Source of the DNA: Candidatus Heimdallarchaeota archaeon
GTDB taxonomy: Archaea; Asgardarchaeota; Heimdallarchaeia; Hodarchaeales; Hodarchaeaceae
Length of the DNA: 64,000 bases
NCBI GenBank assembly: GCA_020353515.1
Contig: CP070695.1
Location: 1,570,100 to 1,634,099, forward strand
Direction: 5' to 3'
In this document: positions 2,007 through 27,024 of the stretch, piece after piece
Position numbering within the stretch: position 1 is the stretch's first letter
Layout of the letters: each line of letters opens with the position of its first letter
Made by a program: the position numbers and the translations under genes
Notes under the pieces: generated by a model
Seen by the model: the letters and a program-made list of their open reading frames with translations, nothing else
The model's database searches: none
What the model was told of the DNA's origin: nothing

Positions 2007-2966
2007 TTAGAAAAACAAGGAGGACACAACAATTCCGAAAAATAACCAAAGAAAAGCAAACCCCATAAACATTGAGGCAATTTTAAAGATCCTGAATGTT
2101 CGTTGTTCAGATGGTCTCTTAAAATTGATTCCAGTATGGTAGAGAATATAAAAACAGAAAATTAACAAAGGAAGCATTGGAAGGAAGTGAATTCCAAGAA
2201 TAAAACCTGTGAATACAACAGTGATTCCGCTCAGGACAGCAGAAATAGTGATTACTCTGATAGTTTGGTTTTTATTCGTTACTACGGGCCACATGGGGAT
2301 CTTAGCATTCCTATAATCTTCTAGATTCTTTGGGATTAATGCGAGAGTCAGAATGTGTAAGGGGATCCAGGCAAGGACAAAAAAACCAATCAATAGTGCT
2401 ATCATATCAATTGTTCCTGTCACTGCAGTTCGACCAGCTATTGCAGGTAAGCCTCCTGCAATTCCTCCAAAAACGATTGAAAATCTTGTTCGTCGTTTTA
2501 ACAAGAGTGAATAAACTATAACATCAAAGAAAAATCCCATAAAAACAATAAGCATGGTAATGAAATTGAATAAAGCGCCAGAGAGAATGATCCCTACTAT
2601 AACGAAAAGAATTCCATGTTTCAATGCTGTAGATGGATGAATTTTCCCACTAGGAAGTGGACGATCCTTTGTTCGCTCCATAAGGGCGTCGATATCTTGA
2701 TCAATGTACATATTAAGCAAAGTGGAACCAGAGACAGCAAAAAAAAGAGACGTTGTAATCCAGATTAAATCCCAGATTTGAAGACCACCAGGTGTGCTCC
2801 ATGCACTGATTAAATAAGTAAATATTGTAGTATAAACCAGTAAAAAGGTTTGTTTACTCTTGATTAACTCACTATAAGTAGATAAAGTTAAAGGCGGATA
2901 TTTTGTAATTTCCATTTTTCCATATATATAAGGAAAAGATGGCTTTTCTTGAGATATTTCTTTCAT
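2007..2966 (-). CDS. cyoE: Protoheme IX farnesyltransferase (heme o synthase), paralog 1
   Basis: LNMYIDQDIDALMERTKDRPLPSG, YSLLLKRRT, GGIAGGLP, WIPLH, DYRNAKIPMWP. Confidence 0.92.
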   Translation of the reverse strand: MKEISQEKPSFPYIYGKMEITKYPPLTLSTYSELIKSKQTFLLVYTTIFTYLISAWSTPGGLQIWDLIWITTSLFFAVSGSTLLNMYIDQDIDALMERTKDRPLPSGKIHPSTALKHGILFVIVGIILSGALFNFITMLIVFMGFFFDVIVYSLLLKRRTRFSIVFGGIAGGLPAIAGRTAVTGTIDMIALLIGFFVLAWIPLHILTLALIPKNLEDYRNAKIPMWPVVTNKNQTIRVITISAVLSGITVVFTGFILGIHFLPMLPLLIFCFYILYHTGINFKRPSEQRTFRIFKIASMFMGFAFLWLFFGIVVSSLFF

Positions 2967-3000
2967 TTTGTCACATCAAGGTCTTTCGATGTATTTTTCT

Positions 3001-3843
3001 TCATCCCAAATTTAGTTTGATAGCATCATGAGGACAAATATCTATGCAACGATTGCAGTAGTAGCATTCTCCCTTTTTACTGTCTCTTGCAGCTTCTTGA
3101 GTCGGGCAAATCTTTTCACAAAGTCCACAATCTGTACAATCTTCCGTACGTCGATATTTACTTCTAGTTACCTGACCACAGAGACATGAACCTGCCCCAA
3201 AGGGACATAAGAACCTGCACCAGGGACGATACAGAAAAATACTAGCTACACAAACTACAATCAAAACAATGAAAGAGATAATTATCGTAGTTACAGAGGG
3301 AGTCTTAAGTACCGAAAATCCTGGGAAAGGATTAAAAATAGGGAGAATTTGGATACTCAAAAGAGCTAAGAGGATTACAATACCCAAAAATATCCAGCGT
3401 ATTTTTTTAGAGAAAGACGAGACGACTTTAATTTGATATTTAGCTTCATTTTGTTCTTTCAAATCTGATTTAAAATTGACTGTTGAGATTAGTTCTTGCA
3501 AGACACCTAAAGGGCATGCAAATCCACAGAAAATCCTCCCAACGAAAAGTGATGAAGCTAATAACACAATTAGTATTATGATTGCTGGAAGGAGATAGCT
3601 TGACTCACTTCTCAGACTTATTGTTGTCAAAAATTGTTGAATAGGCATTACTGCATTGGGTACTCCGCCTATTATAATACCACCCCATATTATTGTGACT
3701 ACATAGATTCCGTTTCTTATCTTTCGATCCATCAATTCAGCATCAATTAAGATAATGCAGAACAGAAATGTCACAATCCAAGAAATGAGCATTGGTACGC
3801 CGTAGATAGCTTCAAAGGGAAGGGATTCATTTTGAACAACCAA
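3001..3843 (-). CDS. NapH/MauN-type membrane polyferredoxin (4Fe-4S binding protein)
   Basis: GRIFCGFACPLG and RPWCRFLCPFG CX3CP motifs plus two CxxCxxCxxxCP motifs. Confidence 0.9.
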   Translation of the reverse strand: MVVQNESLPFEAIYGVPMLISWIVTFLFCIILIDAELMDRKIRNGIYVVTIIWGGIIIGGVPNAVMPIQQFLTTISLRSESSYLLPAIIILIVLLASSLFVGRIFCGFACPLGVLQELISTVNFKSDLKEQNEAKYQIKVVSSFSKKIRWIFLGIVILLALLSIQILPIFNPFPGFSVLKTPSVTTIIISFIVLIVVCVASIFLYRPWCRFLCPFGAGSCLCGQVTRSKYRRTEDCTDCGLCEKICPTQEAARDSKKGECYYCNRCIDICPHDAIKLNLG

Positions 3844-3933
3844 ATTATCACCATTGTTACAATTTCTATTTAATTAACTAAGGAGTCATGCTGATAAGAA
3901 AAAAAAGTAGGGAACCAAAAAGAGGTTTTAGTA

Positions 3934-4764
3934 TCACACAGTTAAACTCTCTTTGGTAACAACAAACCGGTTCCATATGCTTGGAACTAATGGTACAAAC
4001 ACTAACAGGGTTGAGAGCATCGGCGCCATAAAGAACATAGAAAATTTCCCAAAACTTAGCGAGGATGCAAAAGCAACGGGATATCCAGTGAAAATTGCTA
4101 AAATACCTGATCCAAGAGCAACAATTCTTACCCAATCTTTATCAGGACGACGAAGGATTCCAATAGTGGTTATACCCCAACCAATAGCAGCAGCCCAACT
4201 CACACGTTGTAAAGCTCGGAAAATTGCGTGTATAGTTGGTTCTGTAGCAACACTAGCGGGAAAAAGTTTCATACGGTTGGTACTAGCTACTCCATTTAAA
4301 AAACACATGACATAAGCGATTCCTGTTAATAAAGCGAATATTACAGTGATCCACGGAATACCTTCAACATAGTGTGTCAAAGCTAAAAAAATAACCAAAT
4401 TTGGTAGGAAAATTATTCCCCAAATTGGGATTAATCCCATTTGCATTGCAGGGATCGTTGGCCAGAAACCAGCCAATAAACAAAGAACATTACCGACTAT
4501 TGCTACTGATACTGACCACTCTTCTTCAGTATAAAATCCATAAGCACTTACCGCAAATAATAACCCGCCTATGATACTTAAGTCAGAAATAATTGGAAGG
4601 ATCTCCTCGATAATGACTTTACATCCTTCTTCTGCTATAGGACTATTAGCCTCCCACCATATGTATGGTTCATATGTTAAAACAAAAATCACCATACCAC
4701 CTAGCATACCTATCACAGCTCCAATTAAAGAAAGTACAAATCCTAAAAGTTGATTCCTTTCCAT
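3934..4764 (-). CDS. Uncharacterised ~8-TM membrane protein heading the cyoE-1 operon
   Basis: Hydrophobic helices; apparent internal duplication. Confidence 0.8.
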   Translation of the reverse strand: MERNQLLGFVLSLIGAVIGMLGGMVIFVLTYEPYIWWEANSPIAEEGCKVIIEEILPIISDLSIIGGLLFAVSAYGFYTEEEWSVSVAIVGNVLCLLAGFWPTIPAMQMGLIPIWGIIFLPNLVIFLALTHYVEGIPWITVIFALLTGIAYVMCFLNGVASTNRMKLFPASVATEPTIHAIFRALQRVSWAAAIGWGITTIGILRRPDKDWVRIVALGSGILAIFTGYPVAFASSLSFGKFSMFFMAPMLSTLLVFVPLVPSIWNRFVVTKESLTV

Positions 4765-4782
4765 AAGTAATTTTCTCCAAAC

Positions 4783-4795
4783 TACGATTCTCGTA
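4783..4795. promoter_or_regulatory. Second candidate Lrp (Ptr2-like) operator
   Basis: TACGA-TTC-TCGTA, 19 nt upstream of the 4764 start. Confidence 0.45.
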
Positions 4796-4811
4796 ATACA
4801 AAACTAATATA

Positions 4812-4868
4812 ACAACTCTTAGTGGTGTATTAATATATTTCACTCAGTTTTTCACAACAATCAGTTGT
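4812..4868. promoter_or_regulatory. Two ACAAC-N5-GT(T/G)GT sites, candidate TrmB operator
   Basis: ACAACtcttaGTGGT (4812-4826) and ACAACaatcaGTTGT (4854-4868) in the divergent promoter, just before a TATATAAA box. Confidence 0.4.
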
Positions 4869-4904
4869 AAACTATATAAAGGTCTGATTTCATTATTTAC
4901 CTAG

Positions 4905-5744
4905 GTGGATACAATTAGCGATTTTGAAGAAATAACTCCTCAGGAACTTGAAATGCTAGGTTTGTCAAATTATGAATCGCGGGCTTATCTTACTTTACTC
5001 TCAACTGGAATTAGAACGGCAAAAGAAATAGCAAATGAATCAAAAATCCCATTTGGAAGAGTATATGACGTTTTAAGTTCCTTAGAGGACAAAGGTCTTG
5101 CTGATAAACAAGAATCTAGACCAAAAAAATTTGTAGCAAAAGAACCTAAAATCGCTTTAAATAACCTCTTGAATTTGAAAACGGCAGAACTTCAAACTTT
5201 AACGATAAAGGCAGCTGTGATTGAAGAGAAATTAAGTAATTTACATACTACAAAGCCAGAAGATACCCTATTTTGGAGTGTAGCGCTTGGTGAAAAAGCA
5301 ATCAGCCGCTATATTGAAAAAATTAGTGAGACTGAAAAGGAATTACAAACAATACTTAACATCAGAGTTGCTGCACGTATTCCTCAGAAGGAGATAATTG
5401 AAAATTTAATTACCACGCTCAAATTATTAACTGAAAATGGGGTCTCTGTTCAAATCCTGCTAAGTGGTGTCACTCCAGGCAGCCTAGAAGAGACTTTTTT
5501 GGCTTCAGTAGCACACTTTTTCGTGCTTTTGGACAGAGCTGAAGTAAAACGTACACAACTGACACCAACAGCATTTGATATTATTGATGATGAGAAAATC
5601 CTATTGAAGGTCATGAATCCAGTAAACCCTGATGAGTTTTTTGCTTGGATTTTCGTTTGGCAGAAGAAATTAGCTATAAATTTAAAACCAAAATTTCAAG
5701 AGCTCTGGAAAGATGCTACAGATTTGAAGATTGAAATTAGTTGA
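4905..5744 (+). CDS. TrmB family transcriptional regulator
   Basis: LGLSNYESRAYLTLL...SKIPFGRVYDVLSSLEDKGL wHTH plus effector domain. Confidence 0.9.
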   Translation: MDTISDFEEITPQELEMLGLSNYESRAYLTLLSTGIRTAKEIANESKIPFGRVYDVLSSLEDKGLADKQESRPKKFVAKEPKIALNNLLNLKTAELQTLTIKAAVIEEKLSNLHTTKPEDTLFWSVALGEKAISRYIEKISETEKELQTILNIRVAARIPQKEIIENLITTLKLLTENGVSVQILLSGVTPGSLEETFLASVAHFFVLLDRAEVKRTQLTPTAFDIIDDEKILLKVMNPVNPDEFFAWIFVWQKKLAINLKPKFQELWKDATDLKIEIS

Positions 5745-5762
5745 AAAATCCTAGCTATGCTC

Positions 5763-6722
5763 TTAGATTATAAAAAAAGGAGAAATGACTACTCCCAAAT
5801 ACAACCATAAAAAGGCAAACGCCATGTAAATTGATGCCAGTTTGAAAATTTTAAAAGTCAAATGGTCGGAAGGGTGTTTAAGGTTCACCAGCGATTTATA
5901 AACAATGAAAGCACTGAATCCGAGAAGGGGAAGCATTGGAATAAGATGTATTTGTAGAGTTACACCAGTTAGGATAATTAAGAGGGCACTTAACAAAGCA
6001 GAGAGTGTAATGACTCGAATGGTCTCGATTTTGCTGCTAGTAACAGGCCACATTGGTACATTGGCATTCTTATATCCTTCCAGGTTTTTAGGGATGAGAG
6101 CAAGTGTGAGGATATGTAACGGGATCCAGCATAACACAAATGCCCCCATCAAAATCGCAGCGATGTCAATATAGCCAATAACCGCAACTCGACCAGCCAC
6201 GGCTGGGAGGCCTCCTGCTATACCTCCAAAAATAATTGATAGTCGTGTTCTTCGCTTTAACAACAGCGAATAAACCACAACATCAAAGAAGAAGCCTAAA
6301 AAGACAATAAACATCGTAATTAGGTTGGTGAATATTCCTACTGCTAAAATTCCTGCAACCGTAAAGAGGACACCGTGCTTTAATACTGTGGAGGGGGGGA
6401 TTCTCTTACTCGGTAAGGGACGATCTTTTGTTCTTTCCATAAGTGCATCAATATCGCGATCAATATACATGTTTAGTAAGGTTGAGCCTGAAACAGCGAA
6501 GAAAAGTCCAACTAAAAACAAAATGAAATGATACAATTCAAAATTTGTATTCCAAGAACTGATTAGATAAGCAAAAATCGCTGTGTAAAGAAGGAGGAAA
6601 GTTTGTTTGCTTTTAATCAATTCACTGTATAAGGATAAAGATAGAGGGGGATAAATATATGTCGTTACATCTTCATAAACTTGGGTACTCTGAGAGTCCA
6701 GTGGTGACTTGGTTCTTGACAT
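5763..6722 (-). CDS. cyoE: Protoheme IX farnesyltransferase (heme o synthase), paralog 2
   Basis: NMYIDRDIDALMERTKDRPLPS, LKRRT, WIPLH motifs. Confidence 0.92.
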   Translation of the reverse strand: MSRTKSPLDSQSTQVYEDVTTYIYPPLSLSLYSELIKSKQTFLLLYTAIFAYLISSWNTNFELYHFILFLVGLFFAVSGSTLLNMYIDRDIDALMERTKDRPLPSKRIPPSTVLKHGVLFTVAGILAVGIFTNLITMFIVFLGFFFDVVVYSLLLKRRTRLSIIFGGIAGGLPAVAGRVAVIGYIDIAAILMGAFVLCWIPLHILTLALIPKNLEGYKNANVPMWPVTSSKIETIRVITLSALLSALLIILTGVTLQIHLIPMLPLLGFSAFIVYKSLVNLKHPSDHLTFKIFKLASIYMAFAFLWLYLGVVISPFFII

Positions 6723-6783
6723 TTAGATTCACTTGTTTTAAGTTAGGATTTTTTTACGTATAAAAAGAGAAAGGGGTAGTTTG

Positions 6784-7470
6784 TTAAAATAACCCGCTAA
6801 TAACAGGGATTTCAACTTTCCACTTTGTAGGTAGACCTATTCCTAACATAAAAAGTACTCCAACAATAAGCAATAGGAAAGGAAGTACTTTGAAAATATC
6901 AGCTAAAGGCAAAATAGCCCTCATTCCTTCTACTGTTGCGAATGCTAGTAGTACTCCACCGAAGGATATTAATAACCCGCCGACGCCAAAGAACGCGCTA
7001 GTCCATTCAGTTTCCTTAGAACCAAATGCTGTGTAGAGGGGGAGAAATGAAATAATCAACCCAGATGGAATGTGAGACGCCATCACCGCCATGGATGCCA
7101 TATCTGGCAGAAAGACTTCAAGTTTCATTAAAGTTAATACTGCGATTACAATGAGAACGTAGATGGTATAAATTAGTCCGTACTTAGTATCAGGCCATAC
7201 AGCAAACACAAGGCCGATTGCCAGGCATGCGGGTATAAATGCTGCGACTGGGGGAACAAGTGCAAATCCTAAGGTATCTTCCCAGCCAAGAAGAATAATT
7301 AATACTCCAGAAATAAACAGTACTAAAAAACTTACCCCCCATGCTAGATGGTAGGGTTTTTTTGTTGCCATATACTCTTTAAAAAGTAATAAGGCTAAAA
7401 CTACGGCTACAACGCCAATTACTAGAAGCACTAATGCTCCTATCATATCAGTTTCTAATAATGAAGCCAT
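6784..7470 (-). CDS. Uncharacterised membrane protein upstream of cyoE-2
   Basis: About 7 hydrophobic helices; two His (PYHLAW, ASHIPSG). Confidence 0.8.
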   Translation of the reverse strand: MASLLETDMIGALVLLVIGVVAVVLALLLFKEYMATKKPYHLAWGVSFLVLFISGVLIILLGWEDTLGFALVPPVAAFIPACLAIGLVFAVWPDTKYGLIYTIYVLIVIAVLTLMKLEVFLPDMASMAVMASHIPSGLIISFLPLYTAFGSKETEWTSAFFGVGGLLISFGGVLLAFATVEGMRAILPLADIFKVLPFLLLIVGVLFMLGIGLPTKWKVEIPVISGLF

Positions 7471-7635
7471 TTTATTCCACTCATTCTGAATTTACTAGAA
7501 ATCGTGTAACAAATAATCACTTAGTTGAGAGTTAGTAACAATTGTTTATCCAAAAAAAAACCCCATATTAAAATTAATAATGTTTGCTAAGGTTTTTCGC
7601 ATTAAGTATCTTTTTCAACAGCAGGTTATAATGAG

Positions 7636-7648
7636 GTAATTAGGTTAC
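7636..7648. promoter_or_regulatory. GTAA-N-TAG-N-TTAC palindrome, candidate HxlR operator
   Basis: GTAATTAGGTTAC in the divergent promoter next to the HxlR gene; related copies at 21490 and 23425. Confidence 0.35.
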
Positions 7649-7798
7649 TCTCGGGTCATAAGGCATTTATACTAAAATAACTAAAGCGAAAGCAGAAAAA
7701 AAACCATGTCTTAGAGTTTAACTTTGGGAACCATTGTTATTTTTCAACGATGTTTTGAGAAAAAATGATTCTCTATTCGAAAATAAGGAGTCAAAATT

Positions 7799-8263
7799 AT
7801 GGCACAAGATTTAGAGGAAGAATGTTCAGCATTACTTGCAATTAAAATTCTTGGTCGGAAGTGGATTCCTTGGATATTGTGTGAGCTCTTATCGCACAGA
7901 GAATCCTATTTTTCTGATCTCCTGAAAAGAATTGAAGGAAATTATGGGGAAAAAATATCCGCACGAGTTCTTTCCGAGTCATTAACTATGCTAGAAGAGA
8001 ACAATCTCCTCGAACGTACCGTCGTTAGTGAAACTATGCCTGTTAGAGTGAAATATTCTCTAACAGAAAAAGGAGCAGATTTGGAAGTTATTTTTGGTAT
8101 TCTAAAAGGTTGGGGGATCAGATGGGGTTCGATTAAGCAAAAGAAATGTAAATCCTTTAGCTGTATTCACAACTGTGTTCCTATGATAAATATCAATAAA
8201 GCAAAAGAACTGTTGGAAATAGGAGAACCATTACCAGTTGAAGAAATCGAGGATACCACTTAA
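7799..8263 (+). CDS. HxlR family winged-helix regulator (Cys-containing)
   Basis: ECSALLAIKILGRKW...ISARVLSESL...PVRVKYSLTEKG; C-terminal C-x3-C-x3-C. Confidence 0.9.
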   Translation: MAQDLEEECSALLAIKILGRKWIPWILCELLSHRESYFSDLLKRIEGNYGEKISARVLSESLTMLEENNLLERTVVSETMPVRVKYSLTEKGADLEVIFGILKGWGIRWGSIKQKKCKSFSCIHNCVPMININKAKELLEIGEPLPVEEIEDTT

Positions 8264-8322
8264 AATGAAATCACTGAAGAAAGGATACAAAAGAACACCT
8301 TTCTTTGACAAGGTGAAATTAA

Positions 8323-8709
8323 ATGAATAAATTTCCCTTTAAAAAGGATTCCATCTATTTTCAGTACAATGTAAAGGATATCGATCGTGCTAAGAAGTTT
8401 TATTCCGAGATATTTGGATTTGAGATCACCTGGGATGGTGGGTCGGAAGTAGGATGGTGTGAACTAGCTCTTCCTGTTCATGGGGTAAAACTCGGATTGA
8501 ATTTAAAACGGGAAGGTGAAATAACCCCAGGTTCGGGAACTCTCACCTTTGATGTAACTGATCTGGATGCTGCTAAGTCGTATTTAGAAGAACAAGATGT
8601 GAAAACAGCTGATATTACTGATATTCCAGATATGGTTTCTTATTTTGATATATTTGATTCTGAAGGAAATCGAATTCAGATTGTGGCTGAACCGAGAGTT
8701 AAAAGCTAG
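8323..8709 (+). CDS. VOC/glyoxalase family protein
   Basis: VKDIDRAKKFYSEIFG...FDSEGNRIQI. Confidence 0.9.
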   Translation: MNKFPFKKDSIYFQYNVKDIDRAKKFYSEIFGFEITWDGGSEVGWCELALPVHGVKLGLNLKREGEITPGSGTLTFDVTDLDAAKSYLEEQDVKTADITDIPDMVSYFDIFDSEGNRIQIVAEPRVKS

Positions 8710-8725
8710 ATCCAGTTTTAGCTAA

Positions 8726-10120
8726 TTAATCTTGCCAACTAAGAAGACGCTGTTCACCTTCAAGCTCACGTATAGTAGTGACATCTTGTGTTACTTCTAA
8801 CGTTCCCCGATAATTTTTATCCTTATCCCGAACTGCAAAATAACGAATATGGATAAATCTATCATTTGATTTAATCCAAAATTCCGCACTATCTTTCTGT
8901 CCACTTTTAAAGGCATCTAAAATACGATTTACAATATGAACACTCTTTTTCGGATGACAATTCTGGACTTTCCTGCCTATCACCCCAGGACTACGGGGAA
9001 AAGTTCTCTCTGGAGTATCAGAATAAAAGCGAACTGTATCATTTTCATCAATGTAAGATATTTCAATAGGGAGATGGGTTAATAGTAGTGATACTTGTGA
9101 AAGATTTAATTGTCCCGTCCTTAATTGTAAAAGGTCATGTCCCGTAATATCAGTTTTATGGATTGTTTCAGGTGTAATAGGCACCCATTCCGAACCTGGA
9201 GTTACCCAAGCGTATCCTATCTCCTCCTCTCCATTTCTGACTCCTGCCCATTCTTTTGACCCTAATAAATCAAGGGCTGTTGGAAAAAGAATTGTTTCTT
9301 CTTTAAAGATTAAATCTTCAATTTGGGTTATTAATTCTTTAATATTAAGCTCTTCTTGTCGAAATAACTCTCGTACTTCATCATGTTTTGCCCACATAAC
9401 TTGAGATGGACCTGTGAAACCAGCATGTTCTAACTTTGGAAAAAGTTGATTCTCCAATCGTGTGTAATGGATCTCGATTTCTTGGAGTTTCTTAATTGTT
9501 TCTGGATTAGAGGTTTGACGGATCTCGGAAATCAGAGTTCTTGCCACTTGATTTTCTTGCATGTACGTATGAATAGGATGACCTGGGAGGGTTTCAGGAC
9601 GCGTGTGTTGATCTAGTGAATATTCAAAAATCCCAACATGAAGATCACATAATTTAGTAATCTGTTCTGCTGTCAATGATCCTTCATCAATAAGTGCCTG
9701 TTCCATAGCTGCAATTTCCGATGCATCAACATCACCTAATAGCTCATTGAATCGCTTTTGAAGATCATCTAATTCTCCTCCTTCATGTAACTCCAAAATC
9801 AGGGCTTTAAGCATCTCTTGTCTTCTTGCACGTTCACTCTGCCAACCGCTTTTAGCTTGCTCTGAAATTTCAACTTGGACTTTTTCCGTGGTATTTTTTT
9901 CAATACTTGTTGCGATGGCTTGAACTAACTGTGAAATAGTGCTTCCACTCATTTGTGAGACGTCAGTTAAGGTTGCTCGTCTTCCCACAGTCTTCCGAAG
10001 GAAAGGATTCCTTAATCGTTTTAATTTAGGATTTAACTTCATTAAAGTATCTATGACAAATGGGTACTCTTCAATTAGATCATTAATTTTGGTAGACTCA
10101 GTTATTTTAATGATTGACAT
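8726..10120 (-). CDS. DUF438 protein (DUF1858 + DUF438 + hemerythrin-like + PAS)
   Basis: EIAAMEQAL, LCDLH, GHPIHTYMQEN, HYTRLENQLFP, VMWAKHDE, IGRKVQNCHP. Confidence 0.9.
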   Translation of the reverse strand: MSIIKITESTKINDLIEEYPFVIDTLMKLNPKLKRLRNPFLRKTVGRRATLTDVSQMSGSTISQLVQAIATSIEKNTTEKVQVEISEQAKSGWQSERARRQEMLKALILELHEGGELDDLQKRFNELLGDVDASEIAAMEQALIDEGSLTAEQITKLCDLHVGIFEYSLDQHTRPETLPGHPIHTYMQENQVARTLISEIRQTSNPETIKKLQEIEIHYTRLENQLFPKLEHAGFTGPSQVMWAKHDEVRELFRQEELNIKELITQIEDLIFKEETILFPTALDLLGSKEWAGVRNGEEEIGYAWVTPGSEWVPITPETIHKTDITGHDLLQLRTGQLNLSQVSLLLTHLPIEISYIDENDTVRFYSDTPERTFPRSPGVIGRKVQNCHPKKSVHIVNRILDAFKSGQKDSAEFWIKSNDRFIHIRYFAVRDKDKNYRGTLEVTQDVTTIRELEGEQRLLSWQD

Positions 10121-10564: not shown

Positions 10565-10665
10565 ACATTCATGTCCTAAATATTCTCTGGGTTCCCAATT
10601 TTGGACAGATACAGTTTTAGTTTGAAATTTTATATATATTAATCGTAAAACAAACTACTTAACTA

Positions 10666-11355: not shown

Positions 11356-11368
11356 GGAGTGACGACAT

Positions 11369-17348: not shown

Positions 17349-19571
17349 CTAAGTATTACGTCTTGTTCCTCTTTTTCTTTTCACGTTATGTGTTCTTTTC
17401 ATACTCTTCAAAGTTTTACGAGCGCTTCTTCCTTTATATTCCACATAAGTGTAGAGGCCTAAAGGAACTAAAATCAATACAACAAAGAGTATTCCAATGA
17501 CAAATGACATTGGTATCGTTTCAAGATGACCTAGTATTTCCATATAGTTCGCAGGACTATATGCAAAATTTCCCCAATTATCTATGGCTTCAAAGTAGTA
17601 GGCATAGATACCAGGTTCAGGAAGTCCTTCTGGGAAGGTTACAGTCCAAAGATAATCACCAATCTTCTCTAAAGCGATGGATTTCTGAACTTCACCTGGG
17701 AGATGATAATACATCCTAACAAATTCAACCTCCCCTTGCAAAGGTACATCTTGAGCGATGACATTGATTGAAAAATTGCTGTTAACTGGAACTTCACTCG
17801 CAGGATCGATTCCAATTTCCAAAATGTATGGTGCCCACTCATCTCTCTGCCACAGGAAAAAATAGGATCCACGTACAATCTCGTTACCTAAAGTGTCGTT
17901 TACTATGATTTGAAAATTGATCGTGGTTTCATGTGGTTGGGCATCAAAGCTGAAATTAAACATATTTCCAACATGAGAAAGAGGGATCATATTTCCCAGT
18001 TGATAATCCCCGTTATTTATTGAATAATTAATCATAACTCTAGATATGCCGTCAGAGTCAAATGCTGCAACTAAAATTGTCACTGGATCCCCTATGAAGT
18101 CTATATCTTTCGATCGGGGCGTTGATGGAGACCAAACGGCGTTGAGTACGCCTGGTTTACTATATAACCACAGATTTGCCAAGGAAAAAACAGCTAAGGA
18201 TTGAGTAATAGAATACTTATTATTCCAAGCAGGATCCCCAGGAGTACCATCATTATTGGTCAACTGGTAATATCCTATATGATCATTGTCATAGAGTTTA
18301 TTGTTGAGAAATTCAATTGTATCTAAAATAAGATTGTAGAATAGACTGTTATTTGTAAGTTTGTAGGCCTCATCAAGGGCTTGAATGCAATAAAACTGTC
18401 GTTCTGTATATTTCTTTGTGTCTCTTGATTCAGGATTGTTATATGAATAAGTAGCGAAAAATCCCCCATAACGATTGTCCCAAAAGTTAAGTAATACTGC
18501 TTTTAGTAAGATAAAGAAATCATCATAGTATTTTTGTTTTAAGATCTCATCCGTTGTAGCACTATAGAGATGCGCTAAGAATTGAAGAACAAGTGCGTTT
18601 ATAAAAACATCAGCTGTGCCTGAATCTACAACCTCATTCTGTTTACTCAATCCAGTATAAAACAATCCAGTAGAGGAATTTCGACATGTGGTATTAAAGA
18701 AATTATAAATCTTCTGAGCATTTAATAGATAGCTTTCATCTCCCTTCAGAGTATAAAGATCGAGTAAAGCACGCCCCATTAAAACATTATGGTCGACTCT
18801 TTTTGACTCAGGTTCATATGGATCGTTTGAATCAGTATTTAAGGAGGCAATTAATCCAGAGTGAGACAATAAATAAACGTAATAACCATTTTGATCATCA
18901 ATATTCTTCCACGCATATTTATCAAGGAAGTTAAACGTGTCTATTGCTATTTCGTGATAAGTATCATTACCAGTGACACCATAAAGAGAAAGAAGAGCCT
19001 GAATTGCTATTGCTTGAACTCCGGGTTTTTTCAACCGATTTAATCGTCGAATATAGAACCCATCAAATTGCTTATCATATAAAGTATTAACCAAGTAATT
19101 TCCTGTTTTCTCAGCAACTTTTTGAGCAAAATTCCGTTCTGTTTCGTTTATTACAGCATCGGAAAGCTTCAATAATGCTAAAATTGCTTGAGCGTTATCA
19201 TAAGTTCGAGTATCGTTATTTAAACTTGATTCACTCCATACTTCATCACGAGAGATGGAAAAACCACCAGAAACGTTGTTGTATAGATAATCGATAAGAG
19301 CATTAGCAATTTCAATAGAATAATAGAGGAAATTTGGAAAGTATGCCTCTGGGTCGTCTTCTACTTGAACATTTGCTTTAAGAGGGATTAGAGATCTGGT
19401 GTAGAGCTCATCAAGCGAGGAGGATAATTTTTTGCTGTCCCTCTCCACAACGCTTGATTGTCTTCCAGTGACATCCATGAAATTAGGTAGAATTACAGCT
19501 AACACTATAATAGGCAAAAATAGATTTTTTGCCCATCTCTTTGTCTTTGCGTTTATTTTTCCTTTTGCCAT
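17349..19571 (-). CDS. Secreted, membrane-anchored (alpha/alpha)6-barrel protein (AGE/YyaL-like) with Ig-like domains
   Basis: Signal peptide, repeated helical units (YDNAQAILAL, WDNRYGGFF, LYDNDHIGYY), beta-rich C-half, C-terminal TM and basic tail. Confidence 0.7.
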   Translation of the reverse strand: MAKGKINAKTKRWAKNLFLPIIVLAVILPNFMDVTGRQSSVVERDSKKLSSSLDELYTRSLIPLKANVQVEDDPEAYFPNFLYYSIEIANALIDYLYNNVSGGFSISRDEVWSESSLNNDTRTYDNAQAILALLKLSDAVINETERNFAQKVAEKTGNYLVNTLYDKQFDGFYIRRLNRLKKPGVQAIAIQALLSLYGVTGNDTYHEIAIDTFNFLDKYAWKNIDDQNGYYVYLLSHSGLIASLNTDSNDPYEPESKRVDHNVLMGRALLDLYTLKGDESYLLNAQKIYNFFNTTCRNSSTGLFYTGLSKQNEVVDSGTADVFINALVLQFLAHLYSATTDEILKQKYYDDFFILLKAVLLNFWDNRYGGFFATYSYNNPESRDTKKYTERQFYCIQALDEAYKLTNNSLFYNLILDTIEFLNNKLYDNDHIGYYQLTNNDGTPGDPAWNNKYSITQSLAVFSLANLWLYSKPGVLNAVWSPSTPRSKDIDFIGDPVTILVAAFDSDGISRVMINYSINNGDYQLGNMIPLSHVGNMFNFSFDAQPHETTINFQIIVNDTLGNEIVRGSYFFLWQRDEWAPYILEIGIDPASEVPVNSNFSINVIAQDVPLQGEVEFVRMYYHLPGEVQKSIALEKIGDYLWTVTFPEGLPEPGIYAYYFEAIDNWGNFAYSPANYMEILGHLETIPMSFVIGILFVVLILVPLGLYTYVEYKGRSARKTLKSMKRTHNVKRKRGTRRNT

Positions 19572-19745: not shown

Positions 19746-19769
19746 AACAGCAGATAGATACCTGCTGTT
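19746..19769 (-). terminator. Hairpin plus T-tract downstream of the multiheme cytochrome gene
   Basis: AACAGCAG-N8-CTGCTGTT stem followed on the minus strand by TCTTTTGTTTTTTTT. Confidence 0.5.
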
Positions 19770-19819
19770 CTTGTTTTAGAGATTCGGATGAAACAGAAAC
19801 CAAATTCTGCTAGTTCGGC

Positions 19820-21280: not shown

Positions 21281-21728
21281 TATTATACCGCCATAACAAA
21301 TATTCTTTGTAGTTACATCAAGTAACTGGTTTCTCATCAGGGTTTGTTGTTATTCTATTCCCATAGAACTTCTTCTGTTTGAAATTTCGATCAAGAGTTA
21401 GAATGATCACTGAAATTCCAAGTCTTGTAATTCTTGGCTTCCATCAATAAGAACGTTTTCTAAGGTTTTAATAATCAAGTATCATTGATGTAAGCTAGTA
21501 ACTTCGATGTAATCATCTATGAACTCAATTTCATAGAAGATACATCAGAAAAATCTAAGTATAACTTTTATAGTTTTCGTTATTAAAAAATTTTAAAACT
21601 TGTAAAACTGTAATAATTTGTAACTTAGGATGAGCTCTCCCATTGGCAATCAATTTCCTTAAATCAATGATTATCAAGATTACAGATCGCAAAGCTGTTT
21701 AATGATTGAAAAGTAGTGCGAATTACTT

Positions 21729-22322
21729 TTATTCCTGCTTAACGCCCTTTTTATGGGAAATGAAGAATAAAATACTTGTAATATTAAATACTAACAAAAC
21801 AACTACCCAATCAAATCCTGATGTTGATTCGGATTTAGTTGTTTGCTGTGTTGTTGTGACTTCTGTAATTGTTGTTTGAAAGGAAGGAACAGTAAAAATA
21901 AATTTAGCTGAAGCCCAATTTCCATTACTATCTTCTGAGTAAACTAATAGAACATGTAAACCAGTTTGATTTGGGATTATGACATCATAAGGAAAATCTA
22001 GTGTTACATTCGTCTGGTCCTTTTCCCAATGGTATAGGACTTGGTTTACACTGCTGTCTGCATCAATAACATTTAGATCGATAACAGTCCCTTCAGTTAC
22101 GCTAGAATTATTGAGAGGAGAAATAAGCGTTACTGAAGGAGGGGTTACATCAATATGACCACAACATTCCTCCTCTTGATTAATATCCTTGAATTTCGAA
22201 TTTAAATCATGATCAATATGATATAGAGGAGTAATTACTTTAGCTGCAAATGTACCTCCGATATAAGCCGAAATAGTAATTATGCCAATTAGTAATAATG
22301 AACGACTTAGTTTTTGATTCAA
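21729..22322 (-). CDS. Surface Ig-like protein with CCGH motif and C-terminal sorting signal
   Basis: Signal TM, FKDINQEEECCGHIDVTPP, one Ig-like repeat, T-rich linker, SGF-TM-basic tail. Confidence 0.8.
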   Translation of the reverse strand: MNQKLSRSLLLIGIITISAYIGGTFAAKVITPLYHIDHDLNSKFKDINQEEECCGHIDVTPPSVTLISPLNNSSVTEGTVIDLNVIDADSSVNQVLYHWEKDQTNVTLDFPYDVIIPNQTGLHVLLVYSEDSNGNWASAKFIFTVPSFQTTITEVTTTQQTTKSESTSGFDWVVVLLVFNITSILFFISHKKGVKQE

Positions 22323-22422
22323 CTAACAATCTCCTCTGCTTCGAATAGTCTACCATTGCATTTACGAGTCTAACAGAAGGTTAAGACAAATATACAATAT
22401 AGTGTCTCTGTCTTTTTCTATA

Positions 22423-23340
22423 CTAAACTCCACGCCTTCTTTTTCTCCAAGAAATTAGCGTCAATGAACTGAAAAGTGCCAAGATAACTGGTAATACTAG
22501 AAAACCTGAAGACCGTCGGGGTTGAACATAAGACGTTTCAGACGGTGCTGGTGGTTCACTAACAGCACTTGGATCACTTGTTACAGTGTAATGGAATTTA
22601 GCCGAAGTCCAATTACCTGCACCATTTTCTACATTAATATAAAGCACATGTTCCCCAATTTCATCAGGTAGAACCACATCATAAGGAGAGGAAAGGGTTG
22701 AATTACTTTGATCGTCATCCCAGCGGTAAAGGGCTTGATTTATACCACTTTCCTCATCAATGATGATTAGATCAATATTCGTCCCTCCTAGCATAACGGA
22801 GTTATTTCTTGGGGAATTAGCTTTAATAAATGGAGGAGGAATACCAACAGTAATATGAAAATTGACTGAATCCTCATTTCGTTCGCTATCTCTCGCAAAA
22901 ACATAGAGAATGTGAAGTCCTTTTTCATCAGGTAAAATCACATTATAAGGGAAGTCTAGCTCTGTATCAACTTCATTATCCCAATGGTATCGGACTATAG
23001 TTGGTAAGAAATCATCCATGGGATTATCATCAGTAATACTTAGATCGATCGTTGTTCCCCCAAGATTGACGGAATGATTGTAAAAATGGTTCCAAGCTCT
23101 GGTTGAATTGAGTGTTATTTTAGGAGGAGTCACATCAGTATGCCCACAACACGCATCTTGATTTATATCCCTAAAGCCTACTTCTGTAACATTATGAGGA
23201 AGAACGATTTTCTCATTTTTTGTCATCTCTGAACTAAACCCAGAAATAGAAGTCATATTAAATAAGAAACTTCCGCCTACAAAAGCAGAAATACTTACAA
23301 TGATTAATAAGAGTATTGTACGAACAAATTTTCTACTCAA
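22423..23340 (-). CDS. Surface Ig-like protein with CCGH motif (paralog, two Ig repeats)
   Basis: FRDINQDACCGHTDVTPP, two Ig-like repeats, SGF-TM-RKRRR tail. Confidence 0.8.
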   Translation of the reverse strand: MSRKFVRTILLLIIVSISAFVGGSFLFNMTSISGFSSEMTKNEKIVLPHNVTEVGFRDINQDACCGHTDVTPPKITLNSTRAWNHFYNHSVNLGGTTIDLSITDDNPMDDFLPTIVRYHWDNEVDTELDFPYNVILPDEKGLHILYVFARDSERNEDSVNFHITVGIPPPFIKANSPRNNSVMLGGTNIDLIIIDEESGINQALYRWDDDQSNSTLSSPYDVVLPDEIGEHVLYINVENGAGNWTSAKFHYTVTSDPSAVSEPPAPSETSYVQPRRSSGFLVLPVILALFSSLTLISWRKRRRGV

Positions 23341-23424
23341 TTTTACGTCTCCTCATATTTGGTATTGATCCAATTCATTTTTTCACGTTTCTGAAACGAT
23401 TTTAAAACAGAGCTTTACTTTTTG

Positions 23425-23437
23425 GTAAGTAGCTTAC
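23425..23437. promoter_or_regulatory. GTAAG-TAG-CTTAC palindrome in the divergent promoter of the cyoE-3 operon
   Basis: Perfect arms, flanked by extra TTACTT half-sites (23415-23450). Confidence 0.4.
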
Positions 23438-23591
23438 TTTCTGCTTACTTGATTATTCTTATCTTAGGAAATATTCATAATCTATAAATTATAGAAAATT
23501 AGACAAACTCTATAAAATTTACACATGAAACACATATTATTCTGACTGTTTCTCTCATCATGACTTCAGTAAATGGTCTTCTGAAGATTCG

Positions 23592-24389
23592 ATGTGTAAG
23601 AATAGGAATGTAGAGAAAATGAGTAAAATAATCAGTAAACTGAAAGAATTTCCAAGAACAATAGCAATTCTCTATATATTAATTGGTGCTGCAGCTGCTA
23701 TAGGGATTGTTAGTGGAATTGGAAGTACCTGTACCACCTTTTTTCCCATATGGTGGGAACTCGGAAGCCCTGAAGAGGGGTACCCATTCGCAATCATAGG
23801 GGACACTCAAATAGCTTTCATCCTCGCCTACATAGTGACTTGGCTTGTAGCTTTAGTCTGGGGAGCGCTATTCTGGGCACTTGGTGTGAAAAAAACATGG
23901 TTCTACAAGGTGGCCATTATTACAAGTGCTGCGGGATTCTTGAGTGGATTTATTCCAGTAGCGATTTTGTTTTACGAGTGGTATATGAGTTTCGGACTTA
24001 ATGGGATGTTATTTACACCCTCCTGGTTCCGAACAATCATTAATTTAGTTATATTAGTCATGCTTCTAATTCCTGTTGTTAAACGAGGTATTACAGGTTA
24101 TATAGAAGAAACAGGTGTTTCTGCTGGCGGCAGTGTTGGATCACAAGTTACTCAATTTTCTTTGGTGTTATTCGGTTTCAGTGTAGTAATGATGGTTCAA
24201 CCTCTCATTATGCCCACGCACATCATTGGTGGAGTAAATGTTGGTTCTTCTATGAGTTACCTCCTAGCCTCAGGCACACTCCAATTCTTTTTTGGATTTA
24301 CTTGTATTTTCCTAGGGGTGGTCATACTTATAGCAGGACAGGTGCTAAATATCATCTATTCCTCAAAACCAACACCTTTGAGAGCTTAG
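23592..24389 (+). CDS. Uncharacterised membrane protein, probably related to 3934..4764
   Basis: About 6 TM; shares a W-x3-A(I/L)-x8-G(F/Y)-x0/1-P pattern. Confidence 0.75.
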   Translation: MCKNRNVEKMSKIISKLKEFPRTIAILYILIGAAAAIGIVSGIGSTCTTFFPIWWELGSPEEGYPFAIIGDTQIAFILAYIVTWLVALVWGALFWALGVKKTWFYKVAIITSAAGFLSGFIPVAILFYEWYMSFGLNGMLFTPSWFRTIINLVILVMLLIPVVKRGITGYIEETGVSAGGSVGSQVTQFSLVLFGFSVVMMVQPLIMPTHIIGGVNVGSSMSYLLASGTLQFFFGFTCIFLGVVILIAGQVLNIIYSSKPTPLRA

Positions 24390-24414
24390 GCCAACGCAAA
24401 AGAATGATTACATA

Positions 24415-26031
24415 TTGAGCAGGAAATCATTGAGGTTACAATCTATGAACACTATAGAAAAAGAAGAAGGAATTCTCCCTTGGTTCAAATATAAAATTCA
24501 TTATGGTCTAACCTTTAAAGGAATGATAACTTTCACAATCGTGTGGGAGTTCTGTATTATTCTCTTTTTATCAACCTTTTCTGAACCAATAAAGCTTGTA
24601 CTTGGGCAACCATTGTTTCCCATAACGTTAGATCCCGACCCTATCGAGAAAGCTGGCCGTCTTATTATGGTTTATCACGGAATCGCGGTTCCATTCATAG
24701 CAACCTGTGCTTATTTTGTATTGGAATACATGGATGTACGAGAGAAGTTTAAATCCCGCGTAAAATATCCACTATTTTTTGGGAGTATTTTAGCTTCTGC
24801 AAATGCACTATTATTCGCTTATGTTTTCCCAGAAGGCTGGATTTTACACGGATTGTACTTAGTGGGATTATCTCTTTGTTTTTATGGTGGAGTCATGCTT
24901 CTTATCGGTGTTTTTCCAACGAAGAGTTTTCCAGAACGAGGCCCAGAAAACAGCCGTAATGTTCTTGTTGGACAACTTGCATTAACACTGCTTGCTATTT
25001 GTATTTTGATTAGTGTTATACTTGGAGCAGCAGTTGGCGCCTTTTTTGGCCAATCTGGTTTGACAGTAATGCTGGCAGAGTATTTCCTTAGGCATGATCT
25101 CTATCCGTATTTTGTTGAAGAGCTTTTCATAGACGCCATTAAAGCTCATTTACATGTTATGCTGGCATTAATTGATGTCATAATCCTACTAGTTGTCTAT
25201 CGATATACTGTTCCTGACCAAAAGGGAAAGTGGTATCTTATTTCTATGATCCTTGCTATTCCAGGAATGCTCATTCTTTCATTGGGAGCTTGGTTTGTAA
25301 CACTTAACTCCATAGTCACTTGGCCCTTTGATATGCATTATCTCATTTATGCTGGTGCAGCGATTCTCGTAACTGTTGGCATAATATTGGCGTTTACGGG
25401 TTGGAATAAAGCAAGTAAAGAAGTTCTTGGCGATTCTTATGACTCTGCGTCCTGGTTTACTCGTGTTAAAGCTGTTTTCAAAGTTCCTGTGAAATTCGCC
25501 TTATATTTCCAATTTATCTGGGTGAATATCGTAATGACTATTGGAGGTATATTCCTTGCCCTTAGTCTTCGAGGTGAAACTGATCCTGAGGGTGCTTCTC
25601 CACTCACAAATGTGTTAGGTCTGGTTTCATTTCGAGATGGTCCTCTAGCAATTGAAACTACAGTCGCTCGTGGTCATTGGCACGTTCTAGCTACATTATC
25701 GGCAATTATTTTACTTCTCCTAGTTATAGATGTACTAGATATTCAAGGTATTTGGCGTAAGGTAATAGCTTGGCTGTTATTTGCTGGAAGTGTTATTGCA
25801 TTTGGATTGGCAACAATTTTTTTGTATTTCCCACATTTAGACCAAACATGGGCGACAAATTTGACTAAATATGTAGACGTACAGGAATTCTGGAATGAAA
25901 CAGCATTTTGGTTACCGCTTGTCATTGACTTTGGAATCATGCTATTCGTCGTAGCAATTACAATATTCTGTTTCCATCAGCTCATTGAGATTCTCAAAGG
26001 AAGAAAAGATGTTAAAGAATTCCCAGAATAA
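24415..26031 (+). CDS. 12-TM His-rich membrane protein, putative divergent heme-copper oxidase subunit I-like fold
   Basis: His in TM2 (VYHG), HxH in TM6 (AHLH) and TM10 (GHWH); directly upstream of cyoE-3; probable start ATG 24445. Confidence 0.55.
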   Translation: MSRKSLRLQSMNTIEKEEGILPWFKYKIHYGLTFKGMITFTIVWEFCIILFLSTFSEPIKLVLGQPLFPITLDPDPIEKAGRLIMVYHGIAVPFIATCAYFVLEYMDVREKFKSRVKYPLFFGSILASANALLFAYVFPEGWILHGLYLVGLSLCFYGGVMLLIGVFPTKSFPERGPENSRNVLVGQLALTLLAICILISVILGAAVGAFFGQSGLTVMLAEYFLRHDLYPYFVEELFIDAIKAHLHVMLALIDVIILLVVYRYTVPDQKGKWYLISMILAIPGMLILSLGAWFVTLNSIVTWPFDMHYLIYAGAAILVTVGIILAFTGWNKASKEVLGDSYDSASWFTRVKAVFKVPVKFALYFQFIWVNIVMTIGGIFLALSLRGETDPEGASPLTNVLGLVSFRDGPLAIETTVARGHWHVLATLSAIILLLLVIDVLDIQGIWRKVIAWLLFAGSVIAFGLATIFLYFPHLDQTWATNLTKYVDVQEFWNETAFWLPLVIDFGIMLFVVAITIFCFHQLIEILKGRKDVKEFPE

Positions 26032-26058
26032 TTGACTTAACTCTGTAAGCTTTGAATC

Positions 26059-27024
26059 GTGGAATGGCTAAAGATTATGAAAGAAGTGGAAATTTCCCTC
26101 CAACCACAGGAATATGAAAGCGTGACGTCCTATACATATCCCCCTCTCTCTTTTTCAACCTATAGTGAACTAATTAAAAGTAAACAAACCTTTCTCCTTC
26201 TCTATACTTCAGTTTTTGCTTATCTGATCAGCGCCTGGGGAACAGGAATCTTCCTATTTCATTTTATTTGGTTCACTATAGGTCTCTTCTTCGCAATTAC
26301 AGGGTCAACCCTTCTGAATATGTATATCGATCGTGATATTGATGCGCTCATGGACAGAACAAAAGATCGTCCATTACCAAGCCGAAGAATTCCCCCTTCA
26401 ACTGTTTTAAAGCATGGTGCTCTTTTCACAGTAGCAGGTATTTTAGCAGTAGGAATATTCACCAACCTAGTTACAATGTTTGTTGTCTTCTTGGGTTTCT
26501 TTTTTGATGTCGTGGTTTACTCGCTGTTGTTAAAGCGACGTACAAGATTGTCAATTATTTTTGGAGGCGTTGCAGGAGGACTCCCAGCCATCGCTGGTCG
26601 GGCAGCAGTTATAGGGTATGTTGACATCGCTAGTATTTTGATGGGGGCATTTGTGTTATGCTGGATCCCGTTACATATCCTCACACTTGCTCTTATTCCT
26701 AAAAATTTAGAAGGATATAAGAATGCTAATGTACCAATGTGGCCTGTTGTCAGTAGTCCAACCCAGACAATATATATTGTGACCTTATCAGCAATTTTTA
26801 GTGCCTTGACTGTTGTTCTAACTGGAATAGTATTACAAATTAATATACTCGCACTCCTTCCATTATTTCTTTTTTGTGCATTTATTCTCTTTCAAGCATT
26901 CGTAAATCTTAGAGAACCCTCTCATGAGAGAACATTTCAGATTTTTAAGCTTGCCTCAATTTTCATGGCTTTCGCGTTCCTTTGGTTGTTCGTGGGAGTA
27001 ATTATAACTTCATTTCTTCCTTGA
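26059..27024 (+). CDS. cyoE: Protoheme IX farnesyltransferase (heme o synthase), paralog 3
   Basis: NMYIDRDIDALMDRTKDRPLPS, LKRRT, WIPLH; close to paralog 2. Confidence 0.92.
   Translation: MEWLKIMKEVEISLQPQEYESVTSYTYPPLSFSTYSELIKSKQTFLLLYTSVFAYLISAWGTGIFLFHFIWFTIGLFFAITGSTLLNMYIDRDIDALMDRTKDRPLPSRRIPPSTVLKHGALFTVAGILAVGIFTNLVTMFVVFLGFFFDVVVYSLLLKRRTRLSIIFGGVAGGLPAIAGRAAVIGYVDIASILMGAFVLCWIPLHILTLALIPKNLEGYKNANVPMWPVVSSPTQTIYIVTLSAIFSALTVVLTGIVLQINILALLPLFLFCAFILFQAFVNLREPSHERTFQIFKLASIFMAFAFLWLFVGVIITSFLP

Follow-up and report, generated by a model that had tools for sequence, protein, structure and literature searches.

Three haem O synthase paralogues and an oxidase-fold membrane protein in a Heimdallarchaeota genome

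The cyoE genes and their genome

The 64,000-nucleotide (nt) stretch of “Ca. Heimdallarchaeota” DNA analysed here (the window; genome positions 1,570,100-1,634,099) contains three paralogous haem O synthase genes, cyoE-1, cyoE-2 and cyoE-3, within 25 kb, and directly upstream of the third a gene for a membrane protein of 538 amino acids (aa), here called HCOL. An earlier note, made from the sequence alone, had placed each cyoE behind a different unnamed membrane protein and had proposed a modular, undescribed system in which prenylated haem serves novel membrane proteins, each module having its own regulator. The open reading frames (ORFs) lie where they had been placed, the three cyoE products match PF01040 and have TIGR01473 as their best model, and the gene order around each cyoE was as described when checked with Pfam and NCBIfam profiles. 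Sequencing runs containing DNA of the window are sediment metagenomes, and no RNA run is listed among them. Database proteins nearest to those of the genome carry the labels Hodarchaeales, Promethearchaeota or Heimdallarchaeota, which places the organism among the Asgard archaea, in the Hodarchaeales lineage. Feature coordinates are those of the window; L numbers denote annotated homologous loci or contigs and G numbers denote surveyed genomes, G000 being the genome of the window. The genes concerned are as follows.

2007-2966, minus strand: cyoE-1, predicted HCOL-type haem O synthase behind the P4/NapH-like pair (TIGR01473, 208.8 bits)
5763-6722, minus strand: cyoE-2, predicted HCOL-type haem O synthase behind P5 (TIGR01473, 215.9 bits)
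26059-27024, plus strand: cyoE-3, predicted HCOL-type haem O synthase directly 3′ of HCOL, with a 27-nt gap (TIGR01473, 209.8 bits)
24415-26031, plus strand: HCOL, 538 aa (528 aa from Met11), predicted oxidase-fold protein with 12 transmembrane helices (TM)
23592-24389, plus strand: P6, 265-aa polytopic membrane protein without a Pfam match
27079-28302, plus strand: major facilitator superfamily (MFS) transporter, DHA1-like (PF07690), 3′ of cyoE-3
6784-7470, minus strand: P5, 228-aa protein with 7 TM
7799-8263, plus strand: HxlR-family regulator (PF01638), divergent from P5
3001-3843, minus strand: NapH/MauN/CcoG-like membrane polyferredoxin, 280 aa, with Fer4_5 and Fer4 domains
3934-4764, minus strand: P4, 276-aa polytopic membrane protein without a Pfam match
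4905-5744, plus strand: regulator with TrmB (PF01978) and DUF7436 (PF24217) domains, divergent from P4
1433-1888, minus strand: Lrp/AsnC-family regulator with HTH_AsnC-type and AsnC_trans_reg domains, 3′ of cyoE-1

The three cyoE products are UbiA-family proteins of 319 to 321 aa (PF01040, 151 to 164 bits) with pairwise identities of 62 to 77%, the highest being that between cyoE-2 and cyoE-3 (77%). TIGR01473, the haem O synthase model (equivalog cut-off, 210.3 bits), is the best NCBIfam model for all three by >140 bits, and the other UbiA subfamily models (UbiA, MqnP, GGGP transferase and chlorophyll synthase) score ≤69 bits. No other strong TIGR01473 match occurs in the whole genome; three paralogues in 25 kb with none elsewhere is no chance pattern. 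The gene preceding each cyoE, 27 to 61 nt away and in the same orientation, is in every case a different one and encodes a membrane protein or a ferredoxin. HCOL, P4, P5 and P6 have no meaningful Pfam match even at an E value of ≤10 and no NCBIfam match. The space between the modules contains ccmABCEF, a multihaem cytochrome c gene and genes for two surface proteins.

Haem O is a cofactor, or the precursor of haem a, for terminal oxidases, and cyoE usually lies with cox, cyo or ctaA genes. The genome of the window is a single closed contig of 4,943,496 bp, 96% complete by marker genes. The lack of a canonical oxidase, claimed earlier for the window, is borne out there and in the whole genome, in all six frames of which COX1, CtaA, CydA, COX2 and COX3 have no profile match. 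HemB (porphobilinogen synthase, ALAD), HemC (porphobilinogen deaminase) and ferrochelatase also have no match in the whole genome. URO-D-family matches are present but cannot restore tetrapyrrole synthesis, because HemB and HemC are absent; haem would therefore have to be scavenged for the Ccm system, the cytochromes and the CyoE enzymes. The organism is apparently a haem auxotroph without tetrapyrrole synthesis. The Lrp-family regulator beside cyoE-1 was considered as an AhbA/B siroheme decarboxylase and rejected, as it has only a weak NirDL-HTH match (E = 0.0015) and the genome also lacks HemB and HemC.

One contig of G062, a sister genome, matches the window gene by gene in a collinear run that extends from P5 to the window end. 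Past the collinear stretch (L088; G062:C1:43460-49714), it carries an A-type oxidase operon encoding a COX1 of 537 aa, proteins of 215 and 477 aa, and a DOMON protein. At the matching site in G000 (window positions 63188-63988 and beyond; L089), the flanking gene is truncated (266 versus 413 aa) and is followed by unrelated, very large ORFs of 1280, 911, 846 and 1718 aa. This suggests that the A-type oxidase operon was secondarily lost in G000 at this breakpoint and kept by G062.

In a maximum-likelihood tree of 60 CyoE sequences of the class, with branch support from the Shimodaira-Hasegawa-like approximate likelihood ratio test (SH-aLRT), the HCOL-type enzymes form a clade of 41 sequences (SH-aLRT, 100), and a branch of ~2.8 substitutions per site lies between it and the COX1-linked, CtaB-like clade. 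Identity between HCOL-type enzymes and COX1-linked CtaB of the class is 27 to 34%. The three window enzymes all fall within one genus-level clade of 17 sequences (support, 95), where cyoE-2 and cyoE-3 share a clade of nine sequences (SH-aLRT, 95), cyoE-3 belongs to an HCOL-adjacent clade of four (SH-aLRT, 100) and cyoE-1 pairs with its L015 orthologue (SH-aLRT, 100). Because all three lie in one genus-level subclade, the window genes are recent duplicates of an HCOL-linked gene. An independent duplication is seen in G054 (L026:809-2859), where a tandem pair of HCOL-type cyoE genes directly follows HCOL.

Like CyoE, CtaB and COX10, the window enzymes have the UbiA fold, TIGR01473 as best family match and the N..D.D.D..RT..R block of haem O synthases (N87..D91.D93.D95..R100-T101..R104). 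Of the 39 positions that are ≥90% conserved in COX1-linked CtaB, 29 are kept in ≥90% of the HCOL-type clade. Unlike the canonical enzymes, they belong to a separate clade with residues of its own, including Q43 and T44 of a KSKQTFLL motif, and are present in three copies without canonical oxidase or haem synthesis. By these sequence features, the window enzymes look like true haem O synthases. Furthermore, seven of nine COX1-positive genomes of the genus, which are incomplete metagenome-assembled genomes (MAGs), carry only HCOL-type cyoE, which presumably also supplies the ordinary A-type oxidase with haem O.

It is very unlikely that these enzymes prenylate a quinone or another aromatic rather than haem, and that their link to HCOL involves a non-haem cofactor or a lipid. 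The TIGR01473 scores at or below the equivalog cut-off, the very long branch from canonical CtaB, the 10 changed positions and the lack of tetrapyrrole synthesis would fit such a substrate. However, TIGR01473 leads all other UbiA models by a wide margin, the motif block is intact, HCOL keeps haem ligands (see below), and the Ccm system and multihaem cytochrome c of the window show that haem is available. The seven COX1-positive genomes with HCOL-type cyoE as their sole cyoE also argue for haem.

Fold and histidines of HCOL

An AlphaFold2 (AF2) model of HCOL, built from an alignment of 38 homologues reaching down to 31% identity, has twelve long helices, with a predicted local distance difference test (pLDDT) score of 90.5 and a predicted template modelling (pTM) score of 0.91. 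In an exhaustive comparison with known structures (VIA-align), the best matches were CcoN of cbb3 oxidase (3mk7_A; Z of 20.3 over 420 residues) and NorB of the nitric oxide reductase cNOR (4xyd_A; Z of 20.0), with 403 to 420 HCOL residues aligned. The bo3, aa3, ba3, caa3 and qNOR enzymes followed CcoN and cNOR (further matches including 1fft_A, Z of 18.1, and 3eh3_A, Z of 17.2). All of the top 10 matches are haem-copper oxidases (HCOs) or nitric oxide reductases (NORs), the next unrelated match having a Z of 12 over 134 residues, and the top 50 Foldseek matches are likewise all HCO or NOR chains. The earlier note had counted the 538-aa partner among unnamed, novel membrane proteins; by this shared fold, it is not unrelated to oxidases.

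Seven histidines are invariant among the 38 HCOL sequences: His88 (TM2), His145 (TM4), His245 and His247 (TM6), His308 (TM8), and His421 and His423 (TM10). In canonical COX1, the G-H-F-H of TM10 ligates the catalytic and low-spin haems. A profile comparison with canonical Asgard COX1 (hhalign) places G-H421-W-H423 of HCOL on this motif, weakly (probability, 28%; E = 6e-4). The TM2-His and TM10-HxH haem ligands are kept in HCOL, the TM2 assignment coming from helix position in the model and repeat equivalence. What HCOL lacks is the His-His pair that TM7 contributes to the CuB/FeB site: TM7 (residues 272-299) of the window protein is free of histidine, and no conserved histidine occurs between positions 247 and 308 in the 38 sequences, TM6 carrying H245-x-H247. 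An internal three-fold repeat is detectable at the sequence level when the alignment is sliced into three four-helix units. Unit 1 matches unit 3 (probability, 89%; E = 2.5e-6), with His88 on His423; unit 2 matches unit 3 (probability, 74%), with H245-x-H247 on H421-x-H423; and His145 of unit 1 falls weakly on His308 of unit 2.

HCOL resembles subunit I of HCOs, including the minimal 12-TM members CcoN and NorB, in its 12-TM core with pseudo-three-fold symmetry and in the histidine of TM2 and HxH of TM10. It differs from subunit I in having no PF00115 match and no TM7 His-His pair, and in its extra invariant histidines in TM4, TM6 (a second HxH) and TM8. In addition, its three-fold repeat can still be detected in the sequence, and its partners are P5 and P6, with no COX2 or COX3 (subunit II or III) homologue in the genome. 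Based on the model, HCOL is a very divergent, fold-level member of the HCO superfamily, a predicted homologue of subunit I with the haem ligands kept and the distal metal site rebuilt. This fold assignment and the history of the cyoE paralogues are together held with high confidence. As HCOL has neither a match to the sequence profile nor the full set of CuB ligands, it is not classed as an ordinary oxidase or NOR.

HCOL is present in a single copy in the genome. Its profile, run against 1.84 billion proteins, retrieves 268 cluster representatives at E ≤ 0.001, and 80 with the cut-off set at 1e-30; fragments are numerous among them. The family is therefore small, and HMMER gives no bridge to canonical oxidases. 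The lone match of the HCOL profile to PDB sequences, a stretch of a Mrp antiporter, was rejected as spurious. Three homologues (P0129, P0175 and P0229) carry C-terminal fusions, with an FGE-sulfatase-type domain in one (785 aa) and PD40/beta-propeller repeats in the other two (777 and 858 aa). No COX1 domain was found in these fusions or in distant full-length relatives.

A function of HCOL in haem handling rather than redox chemistry, as a transporter of haem O or haem, an insertase, or a haem-modifying enzyme replacing haem A synthase, is improbable. Some features of the genome are in its favor: without HemB, HemC and ferrochelatase, haem import is needed, CtaA is missing, and an MFS transporter is linked to the cluster. 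The absence of the canonical CuB ligand pair points the same way, as does the lack of a subunit II-like electron-entry protein, for which the genome was searched with PF00116 without a match (NorC and CcoO were not searched separately). Nevertheless, the ligands that HCOL keeps are exactly those that bind the electron-transfer haem and the catalytic haem in HCO subunit I, the fold match spans the whole 12-TM core, and genomes with full A-type oxidases can have HCOL as well. CtaA, moreover, is an 8-TM protein of unrelated fold, which counts against HCOL as its replacement.

Conserved cluster and co-occurrence

The distribution of cyoE (called at E ≤ 1e-30), HCOL and COX1 was surveyed in 83 species genomes of the class, in which they were found in 40, 36 and 24 genomes, respectively. 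HCOL is present in all 17 genomes that have cyoE without COX1, COX1 is present in all seven that have cyoE without HCOL, and none of the 83 has cyoE with neither. In one family (f4), with COX1 in 0 of 31 genomes, cyoE is confined to the four genomes whose HCOL gene is complete. Another member of this family, the closed genome G007, has only a 100-aa HCOL remnant (G007:C1:790950-791135) and no cyoE. Decay is also seen elsewhere, as a P5 pseudogene with four stop codons (G050:C9:450601-451283) and an HCOL gene with an in-frame TGA (G061:C4:140444-142015).

Gene coordinates put cyoE on the strand of HCOL and directly downstream of it in 26 of the 33 genomes in which the two are found together; of the exceptions, several fall at the end of a contig. 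A Thorarchaeota-labelled contig (L009) and a more distant Asgard contig (L012; 43% identity) show the pairing as well. It is absent in L011, an Anaerolineae contig with an MFS gene next to HCOL. Large ORFs beside unlinked cyoE genes were considered as hidden oxidases and rejected, being SdhA/FrdA, M14 peptidase, tRNA synthetase and ABC/AAA ATPases. Genus g10 (L053:736-4166 and L055:2-4005) has a basal HCOL-type cyoE with one or two genes for small membrane proteins (226 aa, or 176 and 194 aa) behind it and then one for an SdhA/FrdA-type flavoprotein, a possible different client for prenylated haem.

Annotation of 60 loci by BLAST against the window proteins gave, for Heimdallarchaeia and further Asgard archaea, a consensus cluster of P6, divergent HxlR, and P5 followed by HCOL and cyoE, with an MFS gene sometimes next. 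In 13 loci, P5 is the codirectional gene immediately upstream of HCOL, and the gap is often 11 to 12 nt. P6 is a cluster member at 17 loci, where it is next to HCOL on the upstream side or lies beyond HxlR, and HxlR is in the cluster in most loci examined. In the window, this cluster is split into HxlR divergent from P5-cyoE-2 and, 16 kb away, P6-HCOL-cyoE-3-MFS. The split layout recurs only in close relatives (L036 of G062, L062 of G067, and L015); in L015, P5-cyoE is found with P6 and HCOL genes, and the contig ends before a third cyoE. An MFS gene is also 3′ of cyoE in L031, L037 and L040. A CcoA-like copper importer was considered for the MFS protein, but only generic DHA1/Tet-like efflux models match in NCBIfam.

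Oxidase operons with their own haem O synthase gene include cyoABCDE of Escherichia coli and ctaB-ctaCDEF of Bacillus. As in these and many other cox, cyo and cta operons, a haem O synthase gene stands beside the HCOL gene, adjacent and codirectional, implying local cofactor supply. Unlike them, the HCOL cluster has no subunit II, III or IV genes and has an HxlR regulator, and in the window it is split and its synthase triplicated.

P5 and P6 probably act as accessory subunits of HCOL or in its assembly, and synteny would be consistent with a subunit, a haem O chaperone or a contributor to a metal site. The AF2 model of P5 is a seven-helix bundle (pLDDT, 88) with structural matches only to generic 7-TM proteins (G-protein-coupled receptor, rhodopsin and adiponectin-receptor-like; Z ≤ 13.6), none of the matches listed being COX3-like; the fold is uninformative because only such generic bundles were matched. 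The P5 family has two invariant intramembrane histidines (His41 and His133), and P6 has an invariant Cys47 and His210. Profile comparison found no relation between P5 and P6. A complex prediction for HCOL and P5 from family alignments gave a score of 0.00, which weighs neither way.

P4, the NapH-like ferredoxin and TrmB form a conserved unit in their own right (L013, L063 and separate contigs in most of the genus). The ferredoxin always follows P4 in the examined loci, TrmB is conserved beside P4 in L013, L015, L062, L063 and L076, and Lrp has the same position in L015 and L076. Of the earlier first module, the 276-aa protein and the ferredoxin with TrmB thus stand as a conserved unit, but cyoE occurs behind it only in the window genome, L015 and G058 (L076). 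The 280-aa ferredoxin resembles NapH, MauN, NosR and CcoG in its Fer4_5 TM region and two 4Fe-4S motifs. Unlike them, it scores far below the subfamily cut-offs (NapH/MauN model TIGR02163, 89.5 bits versus a cut-off of 213.05; CcoG, E = 7.5e-14), has no nap, Nos or cbb3 genes nearby, and is paired with P4 and TrmB. P4 homologues were found only in Asgard archaea, mostly Hodarchaeales. P4 is possibly a distant relative of P6, as the two families align by hhalign over 107 N-terminal columns (probability, 60%; E = 8.5e-5). The nearest language-model neighbours of both P4 and P6 are clusters of unnamed Chloroflexota hypothetical proteins.

These loci bear on the proposal that the three CyoE copies separately feed P4/NapH-like, P5 and P6/HCOL, as independent modules with their own regulators. 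The spacing of each cyoE behind a different gene, the intramembrane histidines of P5, and the recurrence of P5-cyoE (L015, G062 and G067) and of P4-NapH-cyoE (L015 and G058) are in agreement with it. The regulators are also distinct (TrmB/Lrp versus HxlR), with none seen for the third module. This independence is nevertheless unlikely: in most relatives P5, P6, HCOL and HxlR form one cluster with a single cyoE, P5 being directly upstream of HCOL, HxlR is the conserved regulator of that cluster, and the cyoE paralogues diverged recently, at the genus level. In addition, cyoE across the class tracks HCOL or COX1 rather than P4. As a conserved neighbour of this cyoE clade, the 538-aa partner HCOL held up strongly, while the 276-aa P4 failed, since most genomes with P4 have no cyoE adjacent to it.

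Proposed role of HCOL

The fold, ligand conservation, synteny, co-occurrence across genomes and paralogue history observed here favor the reading that the three cyoE genes arose by recent duplication within a distinct haem O synthase lineage dedicated to one client, HCOL (estimated probability, about 0.6). An ancestral P6/HxlR/P5-HCOL-cyoE unit would have been split by cyoE duplication, with cyoE-2 staying with P5, and a third copy would have landed behind the otherwise separate P4/NapH-like/TrmB module. Of the earlier proposal that prenylated haem serves novel membrane proteins, a novel client that is not a canonical oxidase is retained; the client has an oxidase-superfamily fold, and the modules are not independent.

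Beyond this, the use of haem O by HCOL as its cofactor, the place of P5 and P6 as subunits and the chemistry are what we infer. As the genome lacks HemB, HemC and ferrochelatase, the substrate of CyoE would be imported haem B. Once prenylated, it would be inserted at the high-spin site of HCOL, with His421 as the proximal ligand, and a low-spin haem would be held between His88 and His423, as in all HCOs. The rebuilt distal site, with His245/His247, His145 and His308, could serve as a metal site of another kind or accommodate a third haem, and the probable electron donor would be quinol or a ferredoxin or cytochrome partner in the membrane.

Several points weigh against this reading. Ten of the 39 canonical CtaB positions differ in the HCOL-type clade (e.g., W to L208 and N to S300), and cyoE-1 and cyoE-3 score just under the equivalog cut-off. 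HCOL has no PF00115 match at E ≤ 10 in HMMER and aligns with COX1 at only 28% probability in hhalign, and a profile of its 38 homologues matches no oxidase among PDB sequences (HMMER). The geometry of its seven histidines is deduced from helix positions and repeat equivalence, and the function of the family from sequence and predicted structure. The surveyed genomes are mostly incomplete MAGs, and relatives among them are non-independent samples. Supply alone does not explain three cyoE genes for one HCOL; P5-cyoE and P4-NapH-cyoE are kept in three to four genomes, and additional clients are conceivable.

HCOL may tentatively be assigned a role in the reduction of O2, NO, peroxide or a related oxidant that protects an anaerobe, rather than in energy-conserving respiration, although the odds are somewhat below even. 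This role is favored because of the redox-type HxlR regulator, which has a weak match to the redox regulator RrpB, and of flavodiiron, DOMON/cytochrome b and hemerythrin neighbours. More doubtful is the proposal that HCOL is a functionally new, possibly near-ancestral branch of the oxidase superfamily, which would be copper-free and dependent on prenylated haem. Through its repeat, with equivalent histidines in each of three pores, it would have room for up to three haems or a new His4-type metal site, and it would form a novel complex with P5 and P6 to remove O2, NO or peroxide in Asgard archaea that scavenge haem and lack oxidases.

Oxidant-response genes in the window encode a flavodiiron protein with ODP and flavodoxin domains (40002-41225, minus strand) and a rubredoxin-reductase-like flavoprotein (42415-43611, minus strand). 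A DOMON protein and a cytochrome b561-type protein (47044-47781 and 30380-31117, both plus strand), a DUF1858/DUF438/hemerythrin/PAS sensor-like protein (8726-10120, minus strand) and a glyoxalase-fold gene are also in this context. Directly upstream of ccmF lies the gene for a 740-aa protein (17349-19571, minus strand) with weak GH76 and GlcNAc-2-epimerase-like matches. The same pairing is found in the Thorarchaeota-labelled contig L009 and in G062; the archaeal ccm cluster may include this protein as a conserved, unexplained component.

Genome surveys of Heimdallarchaeia count haem O synthase in the aerobic toolkit (bioRxiv 10.1101/2024.07.04.601786 and 10.1101/2025.02.26.640444), and Asgard haem O synthase is treated together with A-type oxidases (bioRxiv 10.1101/2024.07.04.601786, 10.1101/2025.02.26.640444 and 10.1101/2025.11.07.685452). 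The searched literature, including these three papers, does not mention a divergent oxidase-fold family or describe the HCOL family, and no haem O synthase expression entry was found in the supplements of the HC1-strain paper (bioRxiv 10.1101/2025.02.26.640444). The earlier view of the system as undescribed is upheld by this and by the absence of the family from Pfam and NCBIfam.

Oxygen handling by eukaryotes' archaeal ancestor is actively debated. Of the 40 cyoE-positive genomes, 17 have HCOL and no COX1; metabolic reconstructions miss a predicted membrane haem enzyme in these genomes and may over- or misread an “aerobic” signal. If HCOL is indeed a new copper-free branch, haem O biosynthesis, counted as an aerobic trait in the archaea most closely related to eukaryotes, would largely report HCOL rather than respiration. 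The genome of the window is a useful test case, as it is closed, has apparently lost its oxidase operon and lacks haem synthesis, yet it holds one HCOL gene and three apparently dedicated haem O synthase genes. The family is small and invisible to Pfam and NCBIfam, and with its putatively rebuilt active site it may be a tractable subject for the evolution and chemistry of the HCO superfamily.

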